Source: Limisphaerales bacterium (GTDB lineage Bacteria > Verrucomicrobiota > Verrucomicrobiia > Limisphaerales > AAA164-E04). Taken from it: a DNA stretch of 64,000 bases. Within the stretch, counting starts at the first letter, position 1; every line of letters begins with the position of its first letter. Location: positions 1,583,127 through 1,647,126 of the forward strand of contig OZ241891.1 of NCBI GenBank assembly GCA_965203425.1, in the 5' to 3' direction. This document shows, piece by piece, positions 4,068 to 63,519 of this stretch. A program made the position numbers and the translations under genes. Under the pieces are notes generated by a model, which ran no database searches, was not told the DNA's origin, and saw nothing but the letters and a program-made list of their open reading frames with translations.

Positions 4068-4389
4068 GACTAAGGCGGATTCCCACAATGCGTAATAAAG
4101 AATTCAAAATTTGAAGTTTTTGAACATGAATAAAAATGATGAAACAGAGAGAAACTTGATATTCATCTGGAAACGCCAAAAACCCCAATAGCCTAGAAAC
4201 TACTGACCGCTTCATTATTCCCGTCTCCCACTCTCCATATCTAGTTTATCCCATTCCCTCAGTTTCTTTTTCTTTACCCTCCAAACACCTCCGCTTCCCA
4301 GCTACGCCAACAAAGAAAAACTTTGCTTCAAAACATTCAATCGAAGTAAAAACCCAATCTCCCTTTGCAAATAATAGCCTCGAACCCAA

Positions 4390-4739
4390 CTACAAATCAC
4401 GAAACAAAAAACCACTCTTCTCAACTCTCTTGGAAACAAGATCGAGAAAAAGCAATCTCCGCCATTTACCGACTACAAATCACCCGTTGTGAATCACAAA
4501 CCACAACCCGCTGTCCCACAAATCACAAACATCAAACCACAAAGCACCGGCCGCTTGGTTTGCCCACACAGCAACTAGCCGGCTATAAATCACCAGCCGT
4601 GTCTCCTCGCCAATCGCTAACTGTTGAAGACGAGCAAATCTACAAAGCCTCAACTACAAAGCTGTGGTGCTTTGTCGTTTTTATCGCTCGCCACAAACAC
4701 CAAAAAATCCGCAACACCAAACCAAGTCTACAAAGTGAC
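4390..4739. repeat. cluster of at least 7 direct copies of a CTA(C/T)AAA(T/G)C(AC) motif
   Basis: CTACAAATCAC at 4390 and 4473, CCACAAATCAC at 4516, CTATAAATCAC at 4583, CTACAAAGC at 4640 and 4654, CTACAAAGTGAC at 4728, plus a GAATCAC half-site at 4491. Spacing is irregular. Confidence 0.6.
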
Positions 4740-5608
4740 GGCTTGGGCTTGCCGTTTCTTATGAAAATGGCGGCGGAAGAGGACAAAACCCAAAGCGAAT
4801 AAATCAAACACAAATGCGTATTCTTTGAGTTCGAGGATGATTCTGCTGTGGACGACAATCCGCTCCAAGCCAACGCTGTTGGCCGCTAGGAAGGATCCGT
4901 AAGCCTCTGCTCTTTGATTAGGAGAGACCTAATAAGGCCCCAGAATTATTGTCGCTTTGCGTATGAAAGTCGCCGATGGATTTGTTGATCCAGCTCGTTC
5001 CCACCCAAGAAGAAGGCGGATTGATGGAATAAAACAAACGGCTGAAGAAGCGAATTCCCAAGGGCATCGTATGGATTATCCTAGTCCATCAAAAAACGCT
5101 CAATAGTCGGCTGTTAGCGCTGACGATGGCAATCATCGGCGCGTTGAGACACGAGCGGCAAAGTTGATGTTGGCGTTGGTTCTGCCTCTGCCCAGAATTC
5201 TCTTTCTTGCCGAATCGATGTCTTTAGGATTAGAGCTCGCCAATCAGAGAGAATGAGGAAAGTTCGCATCCTTAGACTTGTTGGCGTTGTCAATGCGTCC
5301 GTTATTGAAAGAGTTCATAAATGCCCAAGTGTCTCATCTAGGGGAATGATTGGAGATTGCGGAGGTTGGAATGCTTTGGAGGCCATTTTGAGTGGCCGCG
5401 GTGGTGAAAGAAGCACTGAACATCCAGAGAGTCTGGCTGGCCTTGTTTTGGCTATGGGAGAGACAATACACAACTGAGATTGGCTTGGTTGGATGAGAAC
5501 AGGAGAAGAAAGTGCCAACACAACAAACACAGCTAAAAAAGACTTCCGGCCGATGCTTGTTGCTTTCGTTTTGACGCAAACAAGGGAATGCTCTTCCTCA
5601 TGTTTCAT
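4728..5608 (-). pseudogene. decayed paralog of the PEP-CTERM protein family found at 39390 and 57936
   Basis: The N-terminus from ORF 5315..5623 is MKHEEEHS...FLAVFVVLALSSPVLIQPSQSQL (compare ...LLSLSSIEQSQAQL in the intact paralogs). After several stops and frame changes, the last frame ends ILELKEYAFVFDLFALGFVLFRRHF...* (compare VPEPEEYALVFGLFALAFVIFRR). At least 4 frame disruptions were seen on hand translation. Confidence 0.5.
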
Positions 5609-6543
5609 CTGAACTAGTTTCAAAATCTAAGAGACTGCGGATGCGAACCACTCCACGATGGAATCCACAAAGGCGATTTATGTTTTGGAGGAACGCTGAT
5701 TCGTCTGTCGTCCAGCGATGCTTGGGAATGCGTTCTGGCTTGGTGGCTGTCTCTGGCCGGATGCCTCGTCCATTCTCAAAATGGAAAAAGGGAAGAGGAA
5801 AGCAAGTTTTTTAGAAACGACCAAGCACGCCAAGAAGCGCGTCATCCCATCTTGCCGTTGTGGGAGGAAGTTTTGGTGGTTCGTGTTTTGTTGGGTTAGT
5901 AGTCAGTGCGGAAAGTGTGTTTTGTGGAGGAAGAGAATTTTGAATGAGGAACGGCGCATGGGAAGGGAGGGCAAAACTGCAAAGGGTGCGAAGATAGGGT
6001 TTTTAGTTTTGGTGATTGGGAATGCTTGGCTACGAACGTGCTGGTTTCTGGCTGTTGAGAAGTGAGGAAGTTTGTTGGTTTAGGTATTGGAGTTTTAGGA
6101 TGTGGATGAGAGGGGGAAAGGGAGAAGTGAATGGGGGGATGTGAAAGGGCAAATCACTGGGCGATGACTTTACAACAGGGCGGGGGACTTTGCTGTTTTT
6201 GCATTGCAAGCTGCTAAATGCTAATTATGGGTTGTATGGTGGTTGGTTTGGTGGGAGTCTGTAGAGAGAGTGGTTGGTTTTGTAAATCTGTTGGTTGTGT
6301 TGTCTTTGCTAAGGGGGAGAGGTTTTCTCGATGTTTGTTGGATGGGGTGGTTGCGGGGTTTGCGGGTTGTTCATTTTTTGGGGGATGGTTTTGGCGGTGG
6401 AGGGGATTTTTCGCGGGTTTTCTCTTTTTGTTTGGAAGGGGTTGTTGGGATTTGTTTCAGTTTTTTTGGGGGGGTTCTCGTTTTTGGTGTCTCTCTGTTT
6501 GTGGAAACGTGCGCCGGTTGTTTGTTGATGATTTTCCGGCAGT

Positions 6544-14691: not shown

Positions 14692-17094
14692 TCATCGAAA
14701 ATCCCATCGAAAAGTCGCCGCTAATCCGTGGGCGGTGTAGTTGTTAACGCCCGCCGCACTTGGCTCCTTGTATTGGAAGGAGCCGTATTGCAGTCGGAAG
14801 GAGCCGGCCTCGCTAATCTGTTTTGCCAAGCCGATGACGACGCCGTGTCGGGCGTAATCGATGCCGATCGGCAAATTCAACCCGGTGTCGCTCTGGTGAA
14901 AGTCTGCTTTGGAGAAGGAATAAGTCGCATCCCAGTGCCAGGTTTTGCGGAGGGCGAGGTTGGCGTTTCCGATAACAGTATAAATTTGCCCGTCGTAGGG
15001 TGTTAGAATGACGTTGTCGGTAATTCCACTGGTCGTGCGAAGATCGCTGATTGAGGCCGTCCCGGCAAAGCGAAGGAGGCGCCAAGGTTGCGCGGCGGTG
15101 GATATTGCCCAACGTTGCGCATTGTAATCGGCCTGCGATTGTCCCGGCGGAAACACTGCCCCGAAGACGTCCACCGAGTCGCTTGCAACGCCGTAATCCA
15201 TTGCCGTGAGGCGATAGGAAAGAGTGCTTCGAAGCCGGCTCGACGGACGCAGAGTCCATTGAATCTGAAAGTCGTCCGTTTCGGCACTGCGAACCCGAAT
15301 GAAGGCCGGATAGCCGTTTCCCGTCGGCGCCAATCCGTCCGTGTCCAAGCGGTGATCGTAGTTGTTCTCTCTCCGTCGTTTTCGATACCAGACGTCTAGG
15401 GAAAACCAACGCCGAGGCGAATAGCGCAAGCCTGCCTTGCCCTCCTTGTAATCCGTCGTTGCGTCGGTCTGCCTCATAAAGTCGTTGTCCGCCGCAAATC
15501 CGTCGTCGACAAATTGCCCTTCCCTTTGATCGATCTTCTTTTGCTGGAATTTGGCGTCCGCATAGACGACCACATTGCGAATCTTCGTATAACGGAGGCC
15601 AAAGTTTTCTTCCGTCGATCTTTGGTCAAGGTTTGTGTCGAGTTGGGCGGGAGTGATTCCGTAAAGAAACAAATCGCCATCCCCGGATTGACGAGTCCAA
15701 TCGTTCTGCGCGCCGGCAAAGAAACTCCATCCGTTCCAAGGGCCGAAGCGCGAATTGAAGTTAACAACGTGAGAATTCCGCTTCAAATAAAGGCTTCTGC
15801 TAAAATCATCTTGGAAAATCATTGCCGGCGAATTGGATGGCAAGAATCTTTCAAGATCGAATTGCGCGTCGGCAGTCAAATTGGCGTACAAATAACCGCC
15901 AGATAAAAGCCACCAAGGTTTGATTTGTTTCTCAATGCGGAACGTGTTGACTCCGCTGAAGTGTTCGTAACCTTCTTTTGTTTCTGCTCGTTCCCAGTTT
16001 TCGGGGCGAGAGCCGACAACGGCAAATTCAATCGTCTCCCGTCGCGTGTCCAAGTCCGCAAACTCGCCGCGAAAAGATTCCTCCAGCCGTCCACCCGTCC
16101 ACTCGTGCCAAAAGTCCGCTTTAAAGACGTGCGTGCTTTCATCGACGCGCTTGGACGACGGCAAAATGCCTTTTCCCGCCACGCTTGCCAAATCCTTTGG
16201 GAAAACCGGCCCCCAATGAAGCGTAGACTTCCCGCCATCGCGAAATTGGTTTTCGTAACCGAGTGTGATCATCGTCCGATCAGTCTGCCCCAACCCAACT
16301 TCCATCCACGCTCGACCGGAATCAAGATACAGATCGCGATCCAAAGAAAACGCATCTTGGCCAAAGTATGGATAAAAACCGCCGGTATCATCGTAGTAAC
16401 GACGGAATCGCTCATATCCAATTGCAAAAAAGCCCAAGTCAGGTTTGCGAAGCGAAAGTTCGATCTCGTGATCTTTCGTGCGCCAAAAAGTGCGAGAGCG
16501 CATCTCAAATTGCGCGCCGTTTTTCAACCGTTCCTTAAGAGACAAAGCCGCAAAACCGCCCGAAAAACCATCGGCCCGCCAACTATGTTCGCGAAACTTC
16601 CCCTCGTCGCCAAAAACCCAAAAATAACCCAAAGCCGGCTCAAAAACATATTGAAGCAAACTTTCCCCAGCACTCTCCTCCCAAACCAACCCTTGATCAA
16701 TCCACGCCCTCAACGTTCCCACTTGCTCGTCCGTCAACCGTTCGCCCTTTCCAATCGGCGGCATTTCCATGTCCTCTACCAAATGCGCCGCATAGTGAAT
16801 GAGCGGACTGTTTGCGCTGTCGCCGAGGAGAATAGCGTTGCCTTGATCTCCGCCGGCAAGCGCCGCCTCCCGCCGACGCAGATTGAAACCGCCCTTCGGC
16901 CTTTCCTCACCGTGGCATCGCAAGCAATGTCCCTCCAATATCGGCAAAACATCTTCCCGAAAATGAATCCCACGCTCGACCGCCGCAGGAATCGCCGACA
17001 AATCCACTTCTTGCGCCGCAACCGGCAAAAGCCAAACCAACATCCCCACCACCACAAACGCCGCTTGCCAAAACGAAGAAAAACGCCCCATCAC
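14692..17094 (-). CDS. outer-membrane beta-barrel-like protein with N-terminal PSCyt1 (Planctomycete cytochrome c) domain
   Basis: 800 aa with a signal peptide (FVVVGMLVWLLPVAAQE). PSCyt1 signature: FREDVLPILEGHCLRCHGEERPKGGFNL...MPP...LTDEQVGTLRAWIDQG. The remaining ~650 aa are rich in alternating aromatic/polar beta-strand patterns and end ...LAATFRWDFR. Confidence 0.7.
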   Translation of the reverse strand: MMGRFSSFWQAAFVVVGMLVWLLPVAAQEVDLSAIPAAVERGIHFREDVLPILEGHCLRCHGEERPKGGFNLRRREAALAGGDQGNAILLGDSANSPLIHYAAHLVEDMEMPPIGKGERLTDEQVGTLRAWIDQGLVWEESAGESLLQYVFEPALGYFWVFGDEGKFREHSWRADGFSGGFAALSLKERLKNGAQFEMRSRTFWRTKDHEIELSLRKPDLGFFAIGYERFRRYYDDTGGFYPYFGQDAFSLDRDLYLDSGRAWMEVGLGQTDRTMITLGYENQFRDGGKSTLHWGPVFPKDLASVAGKGILPSSKRVDESTHVFKADFWHEWTGGRLEESFRGEFADLDTRRETIEFAVVGSRPENWERAETKEGYEHFSGVNTFRIEKQIKPWWLLSGGYLYANLTADAQFDLERFLPSNSPAMIFQDDFSRSLYLKRNSHVVNFNSRFGPWNGWSFFAGAQNDWTRQSGDGDLFLYGITPAQLDTNLDQRSTEENFGLRYTKIRNVVVYADAKFQQKKIDQREGQFVDDGFAADNDFMRQTDATTDYKEGKAGLRYSPRRWFSLDVWYRKRRRENNYDHRLDTDGLAPTGNGYPAFIRVRSAETDDFQIQWTLRPSSRLRSTLSYRLTAMDYGVASDSVDVFGAVFPPGQSQADYNAQRWAISTAAQPWRLLRFAGTASISDLRTTSGITDNVILTPYDGQIYTVIGNANLALRKTWHWDATYSFSKADFHQSDTGLNLPIGIDYARHGVVIGLAKQISEAGSFRLQYGSFQYKEPSAAGVNNYTAHGLAATFRWDFR

Positions 17095-17107
17095 GCAAAT
17101 TCCGTCG

Positions 17108-17962
17108 CTAATAAAGCAACTTGGGACTCACCATCGAACCATGAACGGCCGTATGGCATCCCGCCGTCCAGCAAGTCCCCATTCGAAGAAAAGCGCTATG
17201 ATCCGTTTTGCCCATCAAAACTTGCGCTGGATCCAACTGCATCTGCGAATGACACCGCAAACAAAGATGCGAATCCCGCTGAACCAGCATCTTGTCGTGA
17301 ACCGATCCGTGCGGACGATGACAACTCACGCAACCATCCCGCAAAGCCTCGTGCGCAAACACAAAAGGACGCGCCTGCTCCCGATGACATGAAACGCATT
17401 GTTGATCCTCACGTGCCAACTCCAACCCACCGAACGGTTTGAAAATCTCGCGCCCGTGCGGATCATGGCAATCCACGCAATTCATTTGCCCTTCCAACAC
17501 CGGATGACGCTGCGGCAGGCGAAACTCGGCATGTTGCGCTTGATGGCAGTCCAAACACGATTGCGGATTTTGGCCGGGATTGTGAATGAAAACGCCTTTT
17601 CCGCCGCCAGCCTGAACGTGCTTGCTTCCGGCGCCATGACAAGATTCGCAACCACTAACCTCTTGAAACCCGGCCTCTTCCTTGAAAAAACGCGAATGAA
17701 CGCTGCCGGGAAACAACCGCGCAATCTCCCCGTGACATTCAGCGCACTTTGGATTGCCGACGAAATGCGCCCCCTCAATCCGCGGCGGAACCACAACGGA
17801 ATCCGGCAACGAAGAACACGAAACAAAAAACAGCAACCCCGCCGACAAAGCGCAGCCCGCAACCAAGAAAAACGGCACCCACTGCCGCCTGCCGCAGAAT
17901 AAACTTGCCCCGCTCACATCAGACCTGAATCTTGTTAAAGAACTACAAAAGAATCCAAACAA
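17108..17962 (-). CDS. multihaem c-type cytochrome (7 CxxCH + 1 CxxxxCH)
   Basis: Haem motifs: CAECH, CESCH, CLDCH, CVDCH, CVSCH, CVSCH, CLRCH and a terminal CWTAGCHTAVHGS. Signal/lipobox-like LVAGC / FFVSC. The true start is probably an internal GTG (..VPFFLVAGC..). Confidence 0.85.
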   Translation of the reverse strand: MFGFFCSSLTRFRSDVSGASLFCGRRQWVPFFLVAGCALSAGLLFFVSCSSLPDSVVVPPRIEGAHFVGNPKCAECHGEIARLFPGSVHSRFFKEEAGFQEVSGCESCHGAGSKHVQAGGGKGVFIHNPGQNPQSCLDCHQAQHAEFRLPQRHPVLEGQMNCVDCHDPHGREIFKPFGGLELAREDQQCVSCHREQARPFVFAHEALRDGCVSCHRPHGSVHDKMLVQRDSHLCLRCHSQMQLDPAQVLMGKTDHSAFLRMGTCWTAGCHTAVHGSMVSPKLLY

Positions 17963-22942: not shown

Positions 22943-23169
22943 TTGACAAATTTATAGAACTCTCAAATAATTATTCTCTGTCGGTGATTTCTGTCATTCC
23001 GCTGAAAGCGAGGCAGATGAGATGGGTTCGCCCGATGCGGAGAAAGAGATGTAAGCAGAGAGAGAAGAATTAGTTATTCAGCAAGCTCAAAGCCATACCT
23101 CATTGGTGGTGTGGAAGGGAAGTTTCATCAGACGGTTCTTGGCGTTATTTGTATCGTGTTAGATTGAAT
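22943..23169 (+). repeat. copy 1 of a ~230-nt repeated element with its own sigma70-like promoter (candidate small RNA)
   Basis: TTGACA (22943) - 17 nt - AATAAT (22966), followed by sequence shared with 48516..48743. Identical blocks are ATAATTATTCTCTGTCG, GATGCGGAGAAAGA and TTATTTGTATCGTGTTAGATTGAAT. Indels are not multiples of 3 and there is no shared reading frame. Confidence 0.55.
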
Positions 23170-24244
23170 CACACTTCGGTAATTCTTCAATGTAAGATAG
23201 AAAAGCCGGATTAATATATCAGAGCATTGAAAAGGATAAATGGTCGAGAATAGGATTATCCCTAGAGCACATCAAGATTATGGAAATCGGTGTAATAATG
23301 ACGCTGTCATTGTAGTTTTTATATACTACGGACGTTTCCGAGGAAACAGAACAAGGAAGCGTTCGGGCATTGAAAAGCTATCTAATATGGCGAATGCTGT
23401 GCAAAATGAGTGGGGATCAGTTGAGCCCTTTTATTGAAATATTAGATTTCGCAAAAATCAAAAATCAACAAGTGGATAACGTTATAATTAAATTTTTTAA
23501 AGATCAATCTTCCGAAAATTGTATCTGACCTGATGACTGCAAAATAATTGATTATATCACCATGTTTTCAGTGCCTGGCAGTAAAGCGGGAAAAATGATG
23601 ACTTTTGAAGCAATCGAAACACACATCAAAACTAAGTCTATAAAGCCTCTTAGTGACAGCAAAACTAACTACCAAGTATATTCTACCACAGAAAGAGTGG
23701 GGCGGGAATATCGAAAAAGTTGAGAAGAATCCGTCGATCTTATTGAGAATTTAACTCTAACTTGAGGAACGGAGTAAACAACTAACATAGAAGATTGTTA
23801 AAATATGGATGTGCGCCGGTGATATTTAGCTGAACAAAAAGCATTGCCAGCTAGAGTGTGTTGAAATCCTCAACATTCGCGGGGATCCGTTGAAACAAGT
23901 CGATCTGGTTAAAAACACGATAATGTACAAAGCCAATTTTATTGACAACGAGCAGAAGGCAAATCAGTTGCAGGGAATGCTTTAGAATAACTGATGGCGG
24001 GAAAAATATGGAAAAGGTAAGGTACCTCAAATCCGCATCGGTAGATTCTTGAAGTATTAGACTATGACGGGAATTAGCAAATAAGTCGCCATTCACTGCA
24101 CATAGACAAAGTTTCTCAATTACATCAAAAAGTCAAACCAAATAGTGAAAACGTTGTAAAAAACATTAAGTGGTGTTGATGAATTCATGGAATCCCGATA
24201 AATGTTTCTCCGTCGATAGTCTCTTTTGAAGATCACTTATGGTA

Positions 24245-24532
24245 TTACACTTGCTCATCAGCAATACGCTTGGGTCGACAATCGATCCCGTGCTCCAAGA
24301 ACTCAAGCACGTAGTCGTCACCCAAAAACGGTGGATAAAGGTCCCAGTCTCCAAGGATCCCTTTGCTGTGGTCTACGACTTGAGTTGATTGGTTGAGAGG
24401 GTAATGCCTGTTCTGATGGCTACTGTCATGGGCAAAGGTATACAACATGACTAGATGTCGATGTTTGGCGGTACTGGTACTATCGCTACGCCATATGACA
24501 AGATCGTTCGAACTTTCCTGGCGTTTGTTCAT
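24245..24532 (-). CDS. hypothetical 95-aa protein inside the AT-rich island
   Basis: ATG 24532 is preceded by AGGTGG 7 nt upstream. Sequence: MNKRQESSNDLVIWRSDSTSTAKHRHLVMLYTFAHD... No family recognised. It is the only ORF in the island with a convincing SD. Confidence 0.3.
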   Translation of the reverse strand: MNKRQESSNDLVIWRSDSTSTAKHRHLVMLYTFAHDSSHQNRHYPLNQSTQVVDHSKGILGDWDLYPPFLGDDYVLEFLEHGIDCRPKRIADEQV

Positions 24533-25038
24533 CTCGTGACCACCTGCGTCATGCTTTGATAATTCCTCAACACAGCTCAAATATAAAAAGGACTAAGCTT
24601 AGTGATATGGGAAATTTGGTCTAGGCAAGTTCACACGGAAAAATAGGAGAATTAGCGCTACGAAGTAAATAAATCAAAAATATTTCTCCAATCTCAATCG
24701 CTAAAAGTAACCAAAAAATCTAGAGTCAAACGGAAAATAGCACTTTTCCATGGCCGATCTAGGGGAAGTCTAAAGAGTTGCATAGATATTAGAAAAATCT
24801 TGTGTAGAGTGGTTGATATTTAATTCGCTCCTCGAACGCAGATTGCGCTGGAGTGGGCTAGAGTATCGTTGAAACAGACAAATTATTCACTCTAAACAAA
24901 CAATCAGATGGAAAAACTCTCCACATCCCCAAAACTCAAATCTGTATTCCTCGGCATTATATTGATCACGGTTGCATAAGGGCAATACGCCATCGATTGC
25001 TTCATTCTCTGTTACGTTTCGGCATTCATTGAGGAATA

Positions 25039-25854: not shown

Positions 25855-27285
25855 TTAGGCTAGGATTTTCGTTAGCACGTGGCCGTGGACGTCGGTAAGC
25901 CGCATGTCGCGTCCGCTAAAACGCACGGTCAAGCGGGTGTGGTCAATGCCCAGCAGGTGGAGCATGGTTGCGTGCAGGTCGTAAATTTCCACGCGGTTTT
26001 CGACGGCTTTGTATCCATATTCGTCAGTGGCGCCGTAGGCGGTGCCGCCTTGGACGCCGCCGCCGGCTAGCCAGATGGAGAAGCCAAAAGGGTTGTGATC
26101 CCTACCGTCGGCGCCTTGGGAGAAAGGCGTGCGCCCGAACTCTCCGCACCAGATGACTAAGGTTTCGTTCAAGAGGCCTCGGCTTTTGAGGTCGGCCAAG
26201 AGGGCGCCAATTGGTTGGTCTACCGCGCGGGCGTTGTTGGCGTGTCCGCGCAGCAGGCCGGAGTGTTGGTCCCAACGGTCGGCGCCGACGCTGGGGCAGG
26301 TCAATTCTATGAAGCGGACGCCTCGTTCCACTAATCGCCTGGCCAGCAGGCATTCTGTGCCGAAGGTTCGGGTGGCTTCGAACTCGGATTCCAAGCCGTA
26401 GAGCCGTCGCGTTTGAAGGGATTCGCTGTTTAGGGACATTAGTTCTGGCACTGCGGACTGCATCCGAAAAGCGAGTTCGTAGTTGGCAATGGCGGATTCA
26501 ACGGCGCTTGCTCGTCCCATCCGTTTTAGCGAGCTTCGGTCTAAGGCTTCCAAAAGCCCCAGTTTGTTTTGTTGGAGCCGTGGAGTTTTTTCTTTGGATT
26601 GGATATTTGCCACCGGCGGGTCAGAAGGGCGGAAGACGGATCCTTGAAATGTGGCTGGCAAGAAGCCGTTGGAGAAGTTGTCCAGTCCGCCCGGAGGCGT
26701 GAGACCTCCGTTGAGGACGACGAATCCGGGCAGGTTTTGGTTTTCGGTGCCGAGTCCGTAGGCAACCCAAGCGCCGGCGCTCGGCCGTCCGGACAGTCCC
26801 AATCCGGTATGCAAAAAGTAGTTTCCGTTGGTGTGTTCCGAGAATTCGGAGACCATTGAGCGGATAACGCATAGTTCGTCCGCTTGTTTGGCGACGTGAG
26901 GGAAGAGATCGCTGATTTCGATGCCGCTTTGTCCGTGTTTTTTGAATTCCCAATGTCCGCCGAAGGTGTTGCCGTTGTTGTTGAACTGGGTCGGCTCTAT
27001 TTTCATTTTGAAGGGTTGGCCGTGTTCGGCTTTCAATCGGGGCTTGGGATCAAAGGTGTCCATGTGCGCCGGCCCGCCGTCCATGTAAAGCATGATGACG
27101 TGCTTGGCGCGGGACGCAAAGTGCGGCGGCTTGGGCGCTAGGGGATTTGCTGCGGCTGAAGCCGAATCTCCGAGCGCTTGATTCTTGCTGTGCAGGAGGG
27201 ACAGCAGGGCAAGGCCGCCAAATCCATTGGAGCATCGGGAGAGCATTTCTCGGCGGCTGATGGGCTGATGGAATCTCGATTTCAT
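25855..27285 (-). CDS. DUF1501 domain protein (sulfatase-like, Tat signal)
   Basis: MKSRFHQPISRREMLSRCSNGFGGLALLSL, then a typical DUF1501 body ending ...RDMRLTDVHGHVLTKILA. Start moved to ATG 27285, directly after the upstream stop at 27288. Confidence 0.9.
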   Translation of the reverse strand: MKSRFHQPISRREMLSRCSNGFGGLALLSLLHSKNQALGDSASAAANPLAPKPPHFASRAKHVIMLYMDGGPAHMDTFDPKPRLKAEHGQPFKMKIEPTQFNNNGNTFGGHWEFKKHGQSGIEISDLFPHVAKQADELCVIRSMVSEFSEHTNGNYFLHTGLGLSGRPSAGAWVAYGLGTENQNLPGFVVLNGGLTPPGGLDNFSNGFLPATFQGSVFRPSDPPVANIQSKEKTPRLQQNKLGLLEALDRSSLKRMGRASAVESAIANYELAFRMQSAVPELMSLNSESLQTRRLYGLESEFEATRTFGTECLLARRLVERGVRFIELTCPSVGADRWDQHSGLLRGHANNARAVDQPIGALLADLKSRGLLNETLVIWCGEFGRTPFSQGADGRDHNPFGFSIWLAGGGVQGGTAYGATDEYGYKAVENRVEIYDLHATMLHLLGIDHTRLTVRFSGRDMRLTDVHGHVLTKILA

Positions 27286-27287
27286 GG

Positions 27288-30200
27288 CTAATCTAAGAAG
27301 ATGAATTCTTTGGCGTTGAAAAGAACGTGGCAAAAGTCTGACCAAGCTTGCCGGTTGCCGTTTTCTTTTTCTTCAATGTAAATTTTGCTTTGTTTTTGAA
27401 TAAATTCGAGTGCGAGGCGGTTTTCTTCCGGGGTTGGCTCCCTGCCTAAGGCGGCAAAGTAAGCGCGGGCGATCCGTTCTGCGGGTGCGGTTGTTTGGGA
27501 AAGCAGTTTTCCGGCCCAACTTGCGGCTTGGTGAATGCCAAGCGGGTCGTTCATAAGGATCAACGCCTGCGCAGGCACGTTGGAGACGGAGCGTTTGCCG
27601 AAGGTTGCGTGTGGGATTGGCGCGTCGAAGGCGAGCATTGCGGGGGAAAGAAAATTCCGCCGCACTTCTTGGTAAATGGTTCGGCGCCGCTCACCGTCTA
27701 AGGGGCCGTTGCGGCCTGGTCGCCCGCGCCCGGTCATAAATGGCGTCAAATGCACCGGCACCGGTTTCCCAAATTGCCTCAAATCCAAGTCACCGGAGAC
27801 AAGGAGCATGGCGTCGCGGATGGCTTCTCCTTCCAAACGTCGGATGGGCATTTTGTGGAACCAGCGATTCGTCGGATCCTGTTCGTCGGCGACGGCGTTC
27901 GGCTTGGAGGCCATTTGGTAAGTGGAAGAGGTGGCCAGCAGTCGAATCAATCGTTTGGAAGACCATTCGCCTTCGGTGACGAACCAATGAGCTAGCCAGT
28001 TCAAAAGATCTGGATGAGTAGGCTCTTCTCCTAATACGCCGAAGTTGTCCGGCGTTGGAACGATGCCGCGTCCGAAAAGGTGGTGCCAAATGCGGTTGAC
28101 ATACACTCGCGCCGTCAATGGATTCTGCGGGTGGGCAATGTGTTCCGCCCATTCGCGGCGTCCGGAACCTGCCTCACCAACCGGACGAAACGAATCCAGA
28201 GCTTCGAGGAATTTTCGAGGCGCGGTTTCTCCGAGCATTCTTGGATTTCCTCGGACAAACACGGCGGAGTCTTTCCCGGAACCCTCAACCATTGCCGGCG
28301 ACAACGTCGGAGGCGGAATTTGGTCGGCAATGGCAGTGTATTCGGCTTGGGCTTGATGAAATGGCTCTTCCCTGCCCGGCGCAAGTAGTAGTTCTTTTTT
28401 GGTCAGCCAATTCAGCCATTCTAGGTCTTCTAGGGAGAGCCGGTCGTTCGTTTTTTCGTTTTTTTGTTTTTTGTCAAAGTTCCATCGTTGGATTATTTCC
28501 AGCGTCTTTTGCTCGCAGGCCGCTAAAAAGTCCGCCGATTCCGCTCTCTCTCCGGCCAAACTTCGCAAATAGTTTTCCGGCACTGGCAGAGGAAGGGGCG
28601 GGGATGGCTTTGACGAGGCGATCCCTTGATAAACCGCAAACCATCCGTTGGCGCCGTAGTCGGCTCGGCCTCCGGCCAGATCGCCTGTCGAAGTGTCTTT
28701 GAGTTCGACGTATGCATTGCGCCCGCGCCAGCGGTTTAGGTCGAATGTGATCCAACGTTTCTCGGAGTGGCTTAGATGTTTCTTGAGTCCGCCGTAGATG
28801 GGGTTGCGAATCAGGTTGAAATTGTCGATCACAACGTTGATTCGGCTGTTCTCTCCCGACGCAAGCACGTGAAGATAACGCTCGCGGATGGCAAAGGTGG
28901 GCGAGCGCAGGCTTCCTTGAAAACGTTTAGAGTAGCGAGCGCTGTGAATGGACGGTTGCGTCTCCATCAAGACGGTTGCGTGAGCGCCGGAAAGCAAAAG
29001 TTCTCCGGCATTTGTTTGAGCGTCCACTAGTGCGGGTCCGTCAAAAAACCAGCCGCTCCATCCATTCGATTTAGCGTCCGCCATCCCGATGCCGAGTGTC
29101 TCCACCGCTTTTGCGGGCGCGTCCGAAAGTTTCTTTTCCTGCTTCTGCTGGCGGTTGTGGAAGATCGTTTGTTTTTCGGATTTGTCGGGATTGGCCGGCC
29201 TCGTCAACGCAAACAGGGGATGGCGCTTGCCAACGGATCGAGATTCATCCAGCGCTTCCACCCAACGATTCAGCAAAACGGGATGAAGTTTCTCCGTTGC
29301 GGCCTCGACAACAATTCGTTCCCAAGAGGGCAATGGCCGGTTTTGGAACCCGAAGAATTGCTTCCGTTCGCTAAAGACAAAGTGATCCGCCGCCACGTAT
29401 CCCCAGTCATCCGAAGCGTCGTCTTTGAGTTCGATTTTTGCTTGCCGTCCACGAAACTCCCGCACGTCCCATCGCTTCGGACGAAATTGATCATCTCGAT
29501 TCCCCGCCGCCATTCTCGCCGCTTTTCCGTCCACTAACAAATGAACGGAGACTCCCTTGGAGCCTCCGGAGATTAGAAAGTGAATGTAATCTCTTTGGAT
29601 GGAGAAGGATTTACTTAGAAGTCGGCCTCGATTTTGTTTCCCCTTCTCCGTTCCCGCGCTGTTTGAGCTGGCAAATCTTTGTCCCAAACCGCCGCCAAAA
29701 GACGCGCCGTTAGAGGAATTTTTGCCGTCGAAGGGGTTGTCGGCAAAAGCGTCTCCCTCGCCTTCCCATCGTTTTTCCGGGAATTTTTCAAAGTCTTCGA
29801 AGAGAATGTCGAGCGGAATCGCTTCCGTGTTCAGCGGGATGCTTTCGGATTCTTGAAAGCGGGCAGGAGAGCCGGCGGTAGATGCCAAGGACGGTTGATC
29901 TGCGCGGGAATCGGCAAGCAATCTGAGTCCTGCGCGGACGTATTCGGCCAACGAGTCGGCATTTTTCAGCCAGGCGATGAAGGCCGCTTCTCTTGCGGCC
30001 GTTTTCTTTGCCTTCAAGCGGTTTCTGAAACTGCCCCAAGTCTCCGGCGCGTCGACTGCCGCTTCGTGGTAGCGCGAGCTGCGCAACACGCCGTAGAGCG
30101 AGTAAAAATCCTTTGTCGAAATCGCGTCAAACTTGTGATCGTGGCAGCGGGCGCAGGAAATCGTCAGCCCCAAAAAGGTTTTTGAGAGAACGTCAATTTG

Positions 30201-31292
30201 GTTGTCGATCAAGTCCAGTTGGTTCATCTGAATGTCCACCGGAGAATGAACCTGCTGACCGAGCCAGTAAAAACCCGTTCCCATCCACGACTCGTTAGCG
30301 CCGTTCTCCGGGTTGCGTCGCGCTTCCTCCAACAAATCCCCGGCAATATGCTCTTTCACGAAAAGGTTGTAAGGCACGTCTTGGTTGAACGCCCGAATTA
30401 GATAATCGCGATACCGCCATGCATTGGGAATCTCGTAATCGAACTCGTGTCCCAGCGTCTCAGCATAGCGAACCAAGTCCAGCCAATGCCGCGCCCAGCG
30501 CTCCCCGAATTGCGGCGAAGCAAGCAAGCCGTCCACCAATCGCTCGTACGCTTGGGGATGGCCGTCCGCTTGAAAATTACGGATTGCCTCCGGAGACGGC
30601 GGCAAGCCGGTCAACGCGTAGGACAATCGTCGAATCAAAGACCGCTTGGATGCCCGCGGCGCCGGTGCCAATCCTTCGGTTTCCAAACGATGCAACACAA
30701 AGGCGTCTATCGGATTCGTCGACCAGTCGGCTCTTTCCACTTTCGGAGGAATCGCCTTTTTCACGGGTTGCCAAGCCCAGTGATTTTGTCGGCGTTCGGC
30801 AATGTCAAAAACAGGCTCTTTGCGTTCGTTCTTTGGCGTTGCCTGCTTCGGCCACGGCATGCCTAGGGAAACCCATTGCTTCAAATCGGCGATTTCCCGG
30901 TCGGACAGCTTCGACTTAGGCGGCATTTGCAAGTCCACGTTTTGATATCCAATGGCCTCGATAAAAAGACTGCCGGCCGGCTTTCCCGGAATGGCCGCCG
31001 GCCCGGAGTCTCCTCCTCTCAAAAAGCCTTCGCGAGAATCCAGCAACAGCCCGCCTTTGAGTTTCTCCGCCCGATGACTGTGACACTCAAAACATTTCGC
31101 TGCCAGCATTGGTCGAATCTTTTTCTCAAAAAACTCCAAGCCCTCGGCGGCAAAGGATTCTCCGAAAGCCTGCGGCGGCCAAAGCCCAACAACGGCCAGC
31201 AAAATCAACGCCGCCAAGCCGCGCGCGCCGAGTTGGGCGCGTTGGACAAAGTTCGGGCTCGCGAAGGTTGAAAACGGAGAAAGCCTTTGCAT
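27288..31292 (-). CDS. PSD1/PSCyt + DUF1549 + DUF1553 giant protein
   Basis: 1334 aa. Cytochrome-like [19 protein letters not shown]; DUF1549-like [42 protein letters not shown]; DUF1553-like [29 protein letters not shown]. This is the canonical partner of DUF1501. Confidence 0.9.
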   Translation of the reverse strand: [1334 protein letters not shown]

Positions 31293-60864: not shown

Positions 60865-60950
60865 TAGAAACGCCCGTCACCAAACCTAATTTGCCCCAAA
60901 AGGAAAGGAAAAGGCTTCAAACCAACATTTGCCAACAAAATCTCAGTCAT

Positions 60951-61022
<72 letters not shown>

Positions 61023-61035
61023 AACGGAAAAAAAG

Positions 61036-61064
61036 ATTCTCCAATTTGCAGAAACCATTGTCAA
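61036..61064 (-). promoter_or_regulatory. sigma70-like promoter for tRNA-Lys
   Basis: Minus strand TTGACA (61064..61059) - 17 nt - GAGAAT (61041..61036), 13 nt upstream of the tRNA 5' end. Confidence 0.4.
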
Positions 61065-61133
61065 CTTTTTATTGACGCCCTAAAGAAGTAAACAAAACGC
61101 CTTGCGCCAATCGGCTCCCTACAAGCCGGTTCT

Positions 61134-61988
61134 CTATCGGCTGAGTACGCGGTAGAATCGGAAGTTCGTCTCAGAAGAAGTTTCATCCACAAATGTGACG
61201 GGAACTTCCTCCAACACCAACTCTTGGAAAACTTCCCAACGAACGCCGTCGGATGAGATTTGCACAATTGCCGAACGCCCCGGCGTTCCCTCCACGTCAA
61301 AACGAAATTGACCGTCCACATAAGCGGGACGGGAAAGTTTTGGAGGTGTTGCCGGTTCCAGCGGAACAGGCGCTTCAACAGAATCAATCGCCCGGCGCAT
61401 ATCGGAAACCGAATCCCGAAAACGCTGGGCATAGTGGGTGCGGAGATAGATGATTTCCCACAATTGATGGGAAGGCGAATTGGAAACTCCACTCACTACC
61501 ACAAAATCCGAGCCGCCTGATCTGGCTCGAGATTGCGGAAAGAACTGGAGAAACGCAGCCAGATCCGAGCCGTCCCCCACCAATTCCAAGCCAGTAGCCT
61601 CGGCAAAACGAAGCGTTCGCATTCCCCCATTGGCAATGCCGCTGCTGTCTTTTTCCAACCCCACTATGACTACTGGCAAACCAGCCACATTTCCGCCAAG
61701 ATTTTGGTAATACTGATTGATATCTGACTCAACGACCGCTGAGTTTGCTCGGCAGATGCTTCACCAGTGAGAAAAAAAGTCCAACACAACAATCGAGCCT
61801 TCTAGATCGCTCAACCGAAACTTCTCGCCGGTTTTCACATTCGTCATCTCAAAATCGTCGGCTATCTCGCCAACTTGTTTCTCCTGCGCTTGCGCCTCAA
61901 AACCACTGAGCGCCAATCCAACGCCAATCGCTAAGATCACCGTCAACCGAGTCCATTTTCCTAAGTCACATTTCATTTTCGTTATCAT
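61134..61988 (-). CDS. TlpA/redoxin-like thioredoxin-fold protein, candidate selenoprotein (in-frame UGA 61763..61761 read as Sec; motif W-U-S-I-C)
   Basis: ORFs 61761..61988 and 61134..61688 share one frame and are separated only by TGA plus 24 sense codons. Joined sequence: signal peptide ...LALSGFEAQAQE, FEMTNVKTGEKFRLSDLEGSIVVLDFFSHW-U-SICRANSAVVESDINQYYQNL...VVIVGLEKD. This matches the layout of TlpA/ResA proteins (F.L.d..G....L.dl.Gk.vvl.FWa.WC..C). A ~100-aa C-terminal extra domain follows. Confidence 0.65.
61723..61756 (-). promoter_or_regulatory. SECIS-like stem-loop downstream of the in-frame UGA
   Basis: Minus-strand RNA: UGA-AGCA-UCUG-CCGAGCAA-ACUCAGC-GGUC-GUUGAGU-CAGA. The upper stem is 7 bp (one G-U), the apical loop is GGUC, and the lower stem is UCUG/CAGA. 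The loop starts 23 nt after the UGA. Confidence 0.5.
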
Positions 61989-62000
61989 GTTTTTCTACAA

Positions 62001-63278
62001 TCAAAACTGTATAGAAAAGGCAAACTGAACCGCCGCCCAATCCCGGCTTTTATACAAGTCTTCAAAAAAGGGCGCATCGTCGTCCACCGCTTCATATCGA
62101 GTAAAGTAAGGCCCGGCGATGACTTTTACACTAGCCCTCTTTCCAACCCAACGCGTTCCCAATCCAACTTGATAGCTGTCCAGTCCGGGCGGCGCATTAG
62201 ACGCCGGCAAAGAATTTTGAAACTCTCCCTCATCGTGATAATAACGGCCAAAAACACTCACTAGCCATGCGTCCGTCCAATTGCATTCCAGCGTTGCGCC
62301 GACAAAAAATGCCTTAAACTCTTCCGAAATCTCCGCTTCAGACGCCGGATCCTCTGCCACCCAACCGCCTTGAGCACGCAACACCAACGACTCACCAAGC
62401 GCCGCATTGAGAGAGCTTTGAACGCCCCAGCGCTTCTCTCGCGCCATTGTGTCCGTCATCTGAATCTCCAGCAAGGATCGCAAGCGCGGACTCAAAACAT
62501 TTTCACTGGCCAACCGATACGCAAAGGAGTCTATCACCTTCCGGCCCAACTCCAGACCTTCCGGCCCCAACTCAGCGCTAGGCGCAATCCAGTCTTGGTA
62601 ATAACTGAAGTTCGCCTCTAAATACCCTGAAGCCGGCAAATACTCCCATCGCAATTGCGTTCCCAACTGGTATCCATGCGGCGAAATATTGGGATAACCG
62701 TCGATAGAATATACCTCTCGATAATAATCGTGCAACCACAACATCCGGAAATTTTGGAAGCCATCATAGTAACTTGTTTGACCTTGCCAAACTACACGAT
62801 CGCTCAACGAATGTGTGAGGTTTAACTGCGCCATTTTTCGTTCCGCATCTGAGGGAATCTTATTTGCACCCTTTCCTAAGCGTTGCTCGATTTCCCATTG
62901 AAAAAGCGGATCTCTTGGAGAACGCACGTCAATTCTATATTTGTCATAAGTTAGCCCAAAGTCCCATTGGGTATCCTCGTAGTCGTGGCCATATTGAAGC
63001 GTGTATTGAGTCACTTGAAAATCGCTAGTGAACAAGCCTTCCGCGCTAATGTTTAAGTTTTGTTCAAAATCCCATTCCCGCGCTAAATCCACTTCTTCCA
63101 ACGCATTCTCTTCCGACGAAGCAGTGGTCAGCGTTCTGCTTTCTTGAAGGGCGTTGGCGCCGTTGTCTTCGCCTCGAATCGATTGTTCGATATCTAGCGG
63201 AGACGCCGCCAATCCTTCCGCCAAAAACAAAACCGCCAAGCCCGTCAAACCGCGCTGAAATCCTTGTTTCATCCGCAT
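62001..63278 (-). CDS. DUF3570-like predicted outer-membrane beta-barrel protein
   Basis: 425 aa with a signal peptide (LTGLAVLFLAEGLAAS), aromatic-rich alternating strands and a C-terminus ...AVQFAFSIQF. It is paired with a DUF4266-like lipoprotein and a TlpA-like gene, as I recall for this family. Confidence 0.6.
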   Translation of the reverse strand: MRMKQGFQRGLTGLAVLFLAEGLAASPLDIEQSIRGEDNGANALQESRTLTTASSEENALEEVDLAREWDFEQNLNISAEGLFTSDFQVTQYTLQYGHDYEDTQWDFGLTYDKYRIDVRSPRDPLFQWEIEQRLGKGANKIPSDAERKMAQLNLTHSLSDRVVWQGQTSYYDGFQNFRMLWLHDYYREVYSIDGYPNISPHGYQLGTQLRWEYLPASGYLEANFSYYQDWIAPSAELGPEGLELGRKVIDSFAYRLASENVLSPRLRSLLEIQMTDTMAREKRWGVQSSLNAALGESLVLRAQGGWVAEDPASEAEISEEFKAFFVGATLECNWTDAWLVSVFGRYYHDEGEFQNSLPASNAPPGLDSYQVGLGTRWVGKRASVKVIAGPYFTRYEAVDDDAPFFEDLYKSRDWAAVQFAFSIQF

Positions 63279-63291
63279 TGAAATCTACCGG

Positions 63292-63519
63292 TTATTGGCA
63301 GGCGGTGCATCCCGCCGCTTGGGCGCCTCCCGACAAAGCCGAGCCCGGCTCAATCTGAGTTAGCACCTGCCATTGATAGGCAAAGACCGGCGAGTCGGAA
63401 AACACCATGTTCGGTTTGGATACCAAACGTTGCTCCACCGCTGGCACGGATTTACAGCTGGCTCCTCCAAAAATAGCCAGAAACAAAACCAATCCAAAAA
63501 GTAGTTTGCCAAAACGCAT
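63292..63519 (-). CDS. DUF4266-like small lipoprotein
   Basis: 75 aa. MRFGKLLFGLVLFLAIFGGASC (lipobox), with a C-terminus ...GGAQAAGCTACQ resembling the Gly/Cys-rich tail (..GGGCGCN) of DUF4266. Confidence 0.6.
   Translation of the reverse strand: MRFGKLLFGLVLFLAIFGGASCKSVPAVEQRLVSKPNMVFSDSPVFAYQWQVLTQIEPGSALSGGAQAAGCTACQ

Follow-up and report, generated by a model that had tools for sequence, protein, structure and literature searches.

A probable selenocysteine-containing TlpA/ResA/DsbE-type redoxin encoded beside a lipoprotein and a predicted outer-membrane barrel in a Limisphaerales bacterium

The 64-kb stretch of contig OZ241891.1 from a Limisphaerales bacterium (hereafter the window, meaning the whole stretch analysed) carries on its minus strand a gene that is interrupted by one in-frame UGA codon and that very probably encodes a selenoprotein. 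An earlier note, made from the sequence alone, had proposed that two minus-strand open reading frames (ORFs), 61761..61988 and 61134..61688, form a single gene in which UGA is read as selenocysteine (Sec, or U). The ORF check confirmed that both share one frame, and that the TGA at 61763..61761 is the sole stop between them (…DFFSHW-U-SIC-R…). The frame opened by the ATG at 61988 is closed by the TAG at 61136..61134, giving a read-through product of 284 residues. In the translation of this frame the TGA is flanked by GSIVVLDFFSHW on its N-terminal and SICRANSAVVESDINQYYQNL on its C-terminal side, and the full read-through translation runs from MITKMKCDLGKWTRLTVILAIGVGLALSGFEAQAQEKQ to GSIVVLDFFSHW, the TGA and SICRANSAVVESDINQYYQNLGGN, and ends in RFYRVLSR. 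The features of the gene are as follows.

61134..61988, minus strand: complete predicted selenoprotein gene; ATG at 61988, 284 codons and a TAG stop, Sec codon at position 76
61761..61763, minus strand: in-frame UGA, predicted to be read as Sec; U is position 1 of the U-S-I-C redox motif (61752..61763)
61722..61757, minus strand: stem-loop of the selenocysteine insertion sequence (SECIS) type; two stems and a GGUC apical loop, minimum free energy (MFE) -10.6 kcal/mol
61887..61988, minus strand: predicted Sec-pathway signal peptide, residues 1-34, by inspection of the translation
61374..61880, minus strand: thioredoxin-fold, TlpA/ResA/DsbE-like catalytic domain, by Pfam, NCBIfam and Foldseek
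61137..61346, minus strand: C-terminal beta-sandwich of about 70 residues, past a Pro-rich linker and ending in ...RFYRVLSR, from the model of the homologue P0018

ORF pairs that share a frame and have a single TGA between them occur often in the window. The window was also scanned for a second gene with an in-frame TGA, and no convincing candidate was found. Since neither the split ORFs nor the hairpin goes beyond chance when taken alone, the case for Sec rests on the comparison with relatives.

The read-through sequence was searched against 5.8 billion proteins, and 25 clusters were found, to judge from which the subfamily is apparently confined to Verrucomicrobiota. About 20 of the 25 are 83-92% identical to the window protein and align with no more than its C-terminal 62-65%, which corresponds to the downstream fragment made by gene finders. 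The splitting by automated annotation predicted in the earlier note is thus what is seen: some 20 public relatives are known only as a C-terminal fragment of 160-185 aa. Four further homologues are full-length and carry the motif [WY]-C-S-I-C-R, namely P0018, from a Limisphaerales metagenome-assembled genome (MAG) and 54-56% identical to the window protein, and P0023, P0024 and P0025, which are 27-31% identical. The window TGA aligns with the first Cys of the CSICR sequence in these proteins, a Cys that belongs to an invariant C-x-x-C (TGC/Cys in P0018/L002, L003 and P0023-25); the proposal that U replaces the first Cys of a W-C-x-x-C motif is borne out by this alignment.

The DNA of eight further fragment-form loci was then examined, three of them on contigs of 3.8-4.5 Mb, one labelled 192x. 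Contigs with the UGA form include ENA ERZ26050812 ctg28397 (4.52 Mb), ERZ25070167 ctg394356 (4.31 Mb) and ERZ25070786 ctg150429c (3.83 Mb), and the Cys form was found in the MAGs JAMASS01 and CAYFGX01. The TGA occupies the identical codon in all nine Sec-form loci (9/9, from independent assemblies), whose proteins range from about 90% down to 40% identity to the window protein and whose motifs are W-U-S-I-C-R, W-U-P-T-C-Q, W-U-P-I-C-Q, W-U-P-V-C-R and W-U-S-V-C-R. One end-to-end frame is kept in the nine Sec-form and two Cys-form relatives. From the TGA to the supposed GTG start of the downstream ORF there is a stretch of 24 codons, which is conserved in frame and can be aligned with the Cys homologues.

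Nonsynonymous (dN) and synonymous (dS) substitution rates were computed by the Nei-Gojobori method, separately for the N-terminal mature part and for the C-terminal part, on either side of the TGA. Between the window and L008, dN and dS were 0.032 and 0.775 in the N-terminal mature part and 0.086 and 0.415 in the C-terminal part; between the window and L009, the corresponding values were 0.18 and 1.15, and 0.22 and 0.89. These rates indicate that purifying selection acts both upstream and downstream of the TGA.

The earlier note had also described a hairpin, ACUCAGC-GGUC-GUUGAGU, beginning 16 nt past the UGA. It is found at 61744..61727, where an upper stem of 7 bp (61744..61738 with 61733..61727) closes the GGUC loop (61737..61734), 23 nt past the UGA. 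The lower stem, given in the note as UCUG/CAGA, is present and extends to AUCUG/CAGAU (61757..61753 with 61726..61722). The E. coli fdhF SECIS has the same loop, as the note states: the fdhF element folds with a GGUC apical loop, and its sequence was matched under an fdhF annotation in 5,419 of the 5,426 complete genomes of E. coli. The consensus for bacterial SECIS (bSECIS) elements (PMC13188914) has an apical loop of 3-9 nt with G in its first two positions, an upper stem of 4-16 bp, a distance of 16-37 nt from the UGA and an MFE at or below -7.5 kcal/mol. The two-stem element of the window lies within all of these limits (4-nt GGUC loop, 7 bp, 23 nt, -10.6 kcal/mol).

The stem-loop lies at an equal distance from the UGA in each of the nine Sec forms, and the GGUC loop is invariant among them. 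At codons +5 to +12 past the UGA, the identity of codons specifying the same amino acid is 0.89 vs 0.65 gene-wide, and the hairpin codons take ranks 1 and 2 of 278 seven-codon windows by synonymous codon identity. In an alignment of ten distinct sequences, the upper helix is 94% paired, as compared with 23-41% when its 3' partner is slid by 1-3 columns, and two upper-helix pairs are altered on both sides. Pair 24:33 varies between A-U, G-C and C-G, joining the third base of a Ser codon with that of the second Val/Ala codon, and pair 25:32 varies between A-U, G-U and G-C; this covariation falls at synonymous or conservative sites. Pairing is less complete in the lower helix (78%), which has one A-U to G-C exchange. 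No comparable hairpin was found at the equivalent place in ten distant Cys homologues, and a search of the hairpin region against Rfam at a permissive threshold gave a chance sRNA match only. Taken together, these alignments indicate that the hairpin is under selection at the RNA level and behaves as a functional RNA element.

For the history of the Sec/Cys exchange, a neighbour-joining tree was built with P0023-25 as the root. In it, the two Cys forms, L002 and L003, fall within the Sec forms: the clade comprising the window group, L002/L003 and L010 has a bootstrap value of 100/100, the Sec form L012 lies outside it, and monophyly of all Sec forms was obtained in 0/100 bootstrap replicates. 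Both Cys forms have a TGC codon and retain a hairpin 23 nt past it, CUCAGC-GGUC-GCUGAG in L002 and the drifting UCCGC-GGUU-GCGGA in L003. On the simplest reading of the tree, Cys was replaced by Sec once, at the base of the clade, and a sub-branch later went back to Cys, so that the hairpins of L002 and L003 would be relics of a SECIS. Among thiol oxidoreductase selenoproteins, changes from Sec to Cys and from Cys to Sec are both on record (PMC1794560). At the 3' end of L003, the Pro-rich linker after the redoxin domain is expanded to a long (EP)n repeat that reaches the end of the contig.

The TlpA-like class suggested in the earlier note was corroborated by Pfam, NCBIfam and Foldseek, all of which point to a ResA/TlpA/DsbE-like fold. 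AhpC-TSA (PF00578) matches residues 39-103 with 34 bits (cut-off 26; 3e-8), and the best NCBIfam match is the ResA subfamily (4e-10), at a score well under the curated cut-off. By inspection, the N-terminus has a basic n-region, the hydrophobic stretch LTVILAIGVGLALSGF, and A-Q-A followed by Q (…LALSGFEAQA|QE); the N-termini of the relatives resemble this putative signal peptide. All members of the family have an N-S-P-S-H motif (61467..61481, minus strand), which probably forms the cis-Pro loop. The C-terminal beta-sandwich is conserved in both alignments, A1 and A2.

The structure used here is an AlphaFold2 model of the Cys homologue P0018 (mean pLDDT 78), standing in for the window protein. 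It consists of an N-terminal helix, a disordered stretch, the thioredoxin fold, a Pro-rich linker and a six-stranded beta-sandwich (pLDDT >90). Helix 77-97 follows strand 65-73, and C76-x-x-C79 sits where the two meet, which places [CU]-x-x-C at the N-terminus of helix 1. Among PDB entries, the best Foldseek matches were B. subtilis ResA (1su9, 1st9), a Chlorobium DsbE (3gl3) and further proteins of the TlpA type, with a target TM of about 0.75 and E about 2e-8. Another match was M. tuberculosis DipZ-C, in which a redoxin is likewise joined to a beta-sandwich.

Several observations weigh against the selenoprotein interpretation. Neither selA, selB, selD nor a gene for tRNA-Sec was found by tblastn with E. 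coli SelA, SelD and SelB and by ARAGORN, in a search that covered the 64-kb window and the fetched loci of the relatives and whose sole match was a tRNA-Lys. A protein-database search with E. coli SelA gave at least 120 matches, and those listed were all enterobacterial. The upper stem alone has -7.3 kcal/mol, slightly short of the -7.5 limit, and the folding energy is ordinary when set against dinucleotide-shuffled sequences (z = -0.7 to -1.4). Since the same holds for the authentic fdhF element (z = -1.3), folding energy was discarded as uninformative evidence for a SECIS. Comparable hairpins (an uninterrupted stem of >=7 bp and a 3-9-nt loop with G in its first two positions, 16-37 nt downstream) follow 155 of the 1,700 TGA trinucleotides of the window (9%). 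The conserved peptide S-[AT]-V-V-E itself dictates some of the base pairing in the stem, the covariation is based on only ten distinct sequences, and the link between hairpin and UGA is not strict, since L002 and L003 keep the hairpin beside a Cys codon. In favour of the interpretation, selenium use is on record for the phylum: some Verrucomicrobia use Sec, with three genomes of 1-4 selenoproteins each listed in the supplement of PMC5029168.

The failure to find Sec machinery in these sequences and the hairpins of the Cys forms are also what an account in which UGA is translated, though not as Sec, would draw upon. The codon would be decoded as Trp, Cys or Arg by near-cognate or programmed read-through, maybe stimulated by the hairpin, in a lineage that never had or has lost the Sec machinery, and the persistence of the hairpin in L002 and L003 makes a role other than SelB binding conceivable. 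We consider this improbable. The codon takes the place of the first, catalytic Cys of C-x-x-C, and a protein with Trp or Arg there would be inactive, although purifying selection on the domain is strong; the loop sequence and spacing of the hairpin are specific to SECIS elements of the SelB type; and the nested Cys forms fit relic SECIS elements after a change from Sec to Cys. It would also be odd for an inefficient state to be preserved over 90%-40% identity when one change of the third base to T or C gives Cys. UGA-to-Trp reassignment has been reported for some Verrucomicrobiota (PMC13462651). In the window, however, TGA is the ordinary stop of 11 of the 28 Pfam-supported genes, including those for LeuRS, FeoB and a secretin, and reassignment throughout the genome (code 4 or 25) was therefore rejected.

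That the UGA is a genuine stop, leaving either a pseudogene or a 75-aa N-terminal peptide and an independently started C-terminal protein of 184 aa, is decidedly less probable still. Gene callers make exactly such a split in the public relatives, and the GTG at 61688 could initiate the downstream ORF. This GTG, however, falls inside a beta-strand of the thioredoxin fold in the P0018 model, and the C-terminal piece would have no signal peptide, no active site and none of the first strands of the fold. The called starts vary between relatives, whereas the TGA is retained in close and distant ones, with dN/dS far below 1 on both sides and for long enough to saturate synonymous sites; the 24 codons from TGA to GTG, although outside both called ORFs, are conserved in frame and aligned with the Cys homologues. 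The earlier note had named as a refutation close relatives in which the downstream part has its own start and signal peptide; no such signal peptide is present. A sequencing or assembly error hiding a true TGC or TGT has a negligible chance of being the explanation: TGA is one base away from either codon, but the same TGA occurs in nine assemblies from different samples, three of them with multi-megabase contigs and one named 192x. These nine independent assemblies, together with the selection pattern, exclude both sequencing error and pseudogene decay.

We are thus led to regard the minus-strand gene 61988..61134, with high though not complete confidence, as encoding a single secreted thiol-disulfide oxidoreductase, 284 residues long and of the TlpA/ResA/DsbE type, with Sec at UGA-76 and the active site U76-S-I-C79. 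The single Sec protein proposed in the earlier note is supported by the conserved TGA, the Sec/Cys pairing, selection on both sides of the codon and RNA-level selection on the hairpin.

The N-terminal active-site Cys of TlpA, ResA and CcmG is an exposed nucleophile, and Sec is a stronger nucleophile than Cys, with a lower pKa. How the selenoprotein would be made and would act, we infer as follows. While the ribosome is at UGA-76, the stem-loop 61757..61722 with its GGUC loop would recruit SelB with Sec-tRNA(Sec), and Sec would be inserted. In the exported protein, Sec76 would attack a disulfide of the substrate, and Cys79 would resolve the resulting selenenylsulfide. A likely client would be the C-terminal C-x-x-C of a 75-aa lipoprotein encoded nearby, or something handled by the neighbouring 425-aa barrel protein, and re-reduction may proceed via a membrane protein of the CcdA/DsbD type encoded elsewhere, as suggested by knowledge of TlpA, ResA and CcmG. 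The selenoprotein would be the redoxin component of a conserved three-gene envelope module.

The selenoprotein gene is the third of three co-oriented genes, which are separated by gaps of 13 nt and then 12 nt. The other features of this cassette are the following.

63292..63519, minus strand: 75-aa lipoprotein, cassette gene 1; lipobox Cys, C-terminus ...SGGAQAAGC-T-A-C-Q, 13 nt from the barrel gene
62001..63278, minus strand: 425-aa predicted outer-membrane beta-barrel, C-terminus ...FSIQF, 12 nt from the start of the selenoprotein gene
61096..61108, minus strand: terminator-like hairpin and T-run, 26 nt past the TAG; a consensus match only, the regional count of such matches being not above shuffles

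Pfam and NCBIfam profiles gave no matches to the 75-aa and 425-aa neighbours. The lipoprotein belongs to a family of about 70-90 aa with 75 homologue clusters and no Pfam domain, and all named members are from Verrucomicrobiota. Its homologues (P0299-P0373) share EQRLVSKPNM[VL]FS and the C-terminus ...QIEPGSAxSGGxQAAGC[TS]xC[QRKN]. The 425-aa protein has about 200 representative homologues, 150 of which are listed (P0146-P0295), and some of these weakly match the barrel families BBP2, YaiO and OMP_b-brl. About 55 of the 150 listed representatives are 490-650 aa long and have an N-terminal redoxin domain similar to that of the selenoprotein (blastp E down to 1e-23), with the motif VVLDFFA[HY]WCxPC.

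The order lipoprotein-barrel-redoxin is retained in L001, L008, L009, L017-L019 and L002. In the more distant L020-L022, the lipoprotein gene is followed directly by the barrel or by a redoxin-barrel fusion; L021 has such a fusion (4302..6077) and, apart from it, a redoxin paralogue of 296 aa that shares the NSPSH motif and has another C-terminal domain in place of the beta-sandwich, and L022 has a homologue of the 425-aa family at 4237..5799. Based on the fusions and the synteny, a functional partnership of the redoxin with the barrel and lipoprotein cassette is likely. In L010/L011, a distant Sec form, the gene is located away from the lipoprotein-barrel pair, after a ResIII-type helicase and before a gene with an SLFN/AlbA_2 domain, and the cassette linkage is therefore not universal.

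The terminator-like hairpin at 61096..61108 is a possible operon end. A tRNA-Lys(CTT) gene (60950..61023, minus strand) is located directly downstream of the selenoprotein gene, and a promoter-like TTGACA-17-GAGAAT sequence (61036..61064, minus strand) lies ahead of it. In L001, L002, L008, L009 and L010/L011, too, the redoxin gene has this tRNA downstream of it, with a UvrD-type helicase coming next.

Elsewhere in the window, a low-GC, ORF-poor island was observed at about 23000..25000 (GC 0.38-0.42 vs 0.50-0.60 in the flanks; longest ORF 111 aa), located between a BNR/sialidase-like gene and a DUF1501 gene and with no Rfam match at the gathering threshold. A PSCyt1 protein is encoded beside a multihaem cytochrome with paired CXXCH motifs at 14692..17962 (minus strand), and a 1,334-aa PSCyt1-PSCyt2-PSD1 protein is paired with a DUF1501 protein at 25855..31292 (minus strand). 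Both sets of genes are typical of Planctomycetes and Verrucomicrobia, in agreement with the taxonomy assigned to the window.

Current annotation shows the gene and its approximately 20 public relatives as no more than a truncated "hypothetical protein", and recognition of the Sec codon would restore a complete secreted redox enzyme. A lineage-specific selenoprotein family would be added to a phylum with only three Sec-using genomes in a 2016 survey (PMC5029168), and selenium use would be tied to an uncharacterised but conserved outer-membrane cassette of a C-x-x-C lipoprotein, a barrel and a redoxin. The relatives also provide a clean natural Sec/Cys series with a hairpin-bearing revertant, which should be useful for studying the retention and loss of Sec and the decay of SECIS elements.

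The hairpin and the protein were compared with known systems. Like the E. coli fdhF SECIS, the window element is a stem-loop that lies within the gene, directly past the UGA, and has the identical GGUC tetraloop with its G-U. The window loop is 23 nt from the UGA (18 in fdhF), the upper stem lacks the bulged U, the lower stem is set off by an 8-nt one-sided internal loop, and the sequences are otherwise unrelated.

With B. subtilis ResA, Bradyrhizobium TlpA and CcmG/DsbE, which are extracytoplasmic thiol-disulfide reductases working with Cys, the window protein shares the W-C-x-x-C geometry at the N-terminus of helix 1, and its putative signal peptide would place it outside the cytoplasm as well. 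It differs from them by having predicted Sec for Cys and an extra C-terminal domain, and no genes for cytochrome-c maturation or cytochrome-oxidase assembly are adjacent to it. Scores fell far below the cut-offs of the orthologue models for ResA (NF002854; 39.9 vs 170 bits), TlpA (NF047696; 18.2 vs 230 bits) and DsbE (TIGR00385; 11.9 vs 123 bits). On these profile scores, the window protein is in none of the three orthologue groups, while sharing their fold class. The NCBIfam model of a ResA-like WAxxUGC selenoprotein (NF041054) was also tried and rejected (13.9 vs 300 bits); the known ResA/TlpA-like selenoproteins modelled by NCBI or listed in PMC13188914 have W-A-x-x-U-G-C or U-G-C, whereas the window protein has W-U-S-I-C.

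The three-part layout of the cassette resembles that of the clusters of DUF4266 (small, with a C-terminal CXC), DUF3570 (about 420 aa, flavinylated), a thioredoxin-like protein and ApbE, with or without DsbD, which have been described as systems of extracytosolic electron transfer (Meheust et al. 2021, PMC8238504). With PF14086 and PF12094, no match at E values of 10 or less was obtained to the window proteins or to 26 homologues of the barrel, and the lipoprotein ends in C-x-x-C-x, unlike the C-x-C of DUF4266. No [ST]GA[ST] flavinylation motif was seen in the 425-aa protein by inspection, and neither ApbE nor DsbD was found in the 64-kb window. Membership in the DUF4266/DUF3570 system was rejected, and the cassette is treated as an analogue because the profiles, the Cys spacing and ApbE/DsbD all fail to agree. 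As a tentative proposal, which we hold to be somewhat short of probable, the cassette may represent an undescribed envelope module of Verrucomicrobiota, composed of a lipoprotein with a C-terminal GC[TS]xC-x, an outer-membrane barrel and a free or barrel-fused TlpA-like redoxin. It would be a flavin-free counterpart of DUF4266/DUF3570 that carries reducing power to or across the outer membrane, and the Cys of its redoxin would have become Sec in one lineage, with one sub-branch reverted and keeping a relic SECIS.

Finally, the catalogued UxxC selenoproteins include the "Prx-like thiol:disulfide oxidoreductase" (PF00578) and, under cd02966, the "thiol-disulfide isomerase-like protein" and the "UGC-containing TlpA family protein" (PMC1794560; PMC13188914). 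The window protein resembles these in its PF00578-scoring thioredoxin fold, Sec in place of the first Cys of C-x-x-C, the existence of Cys homologues and a bacterial SECIS directly past the UGA. In contrast to catalogued members such as WP_010940744.1, its subfamily has its own N-S-P-S-H motif and C-terminal beta-sandwich, and the lipoprotein-barrel cassette is not described for the catalogued UxxC families in PMC1794560 and PMC13188914. UxxC redoxin selenoproteins and SECIS elements within coding regions are already textbook knowledge, and no concept is changed here. On the evidence of its sequence, the family is best filed as a Verrucomicrobiota-restricted addition to the known class of UxxC redoxin selenoproteins. 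Less ordinary are its uncharacterised lipoprotein-barrel-redoxin module and the revertant lineage that appears to keep a relic SECIS.

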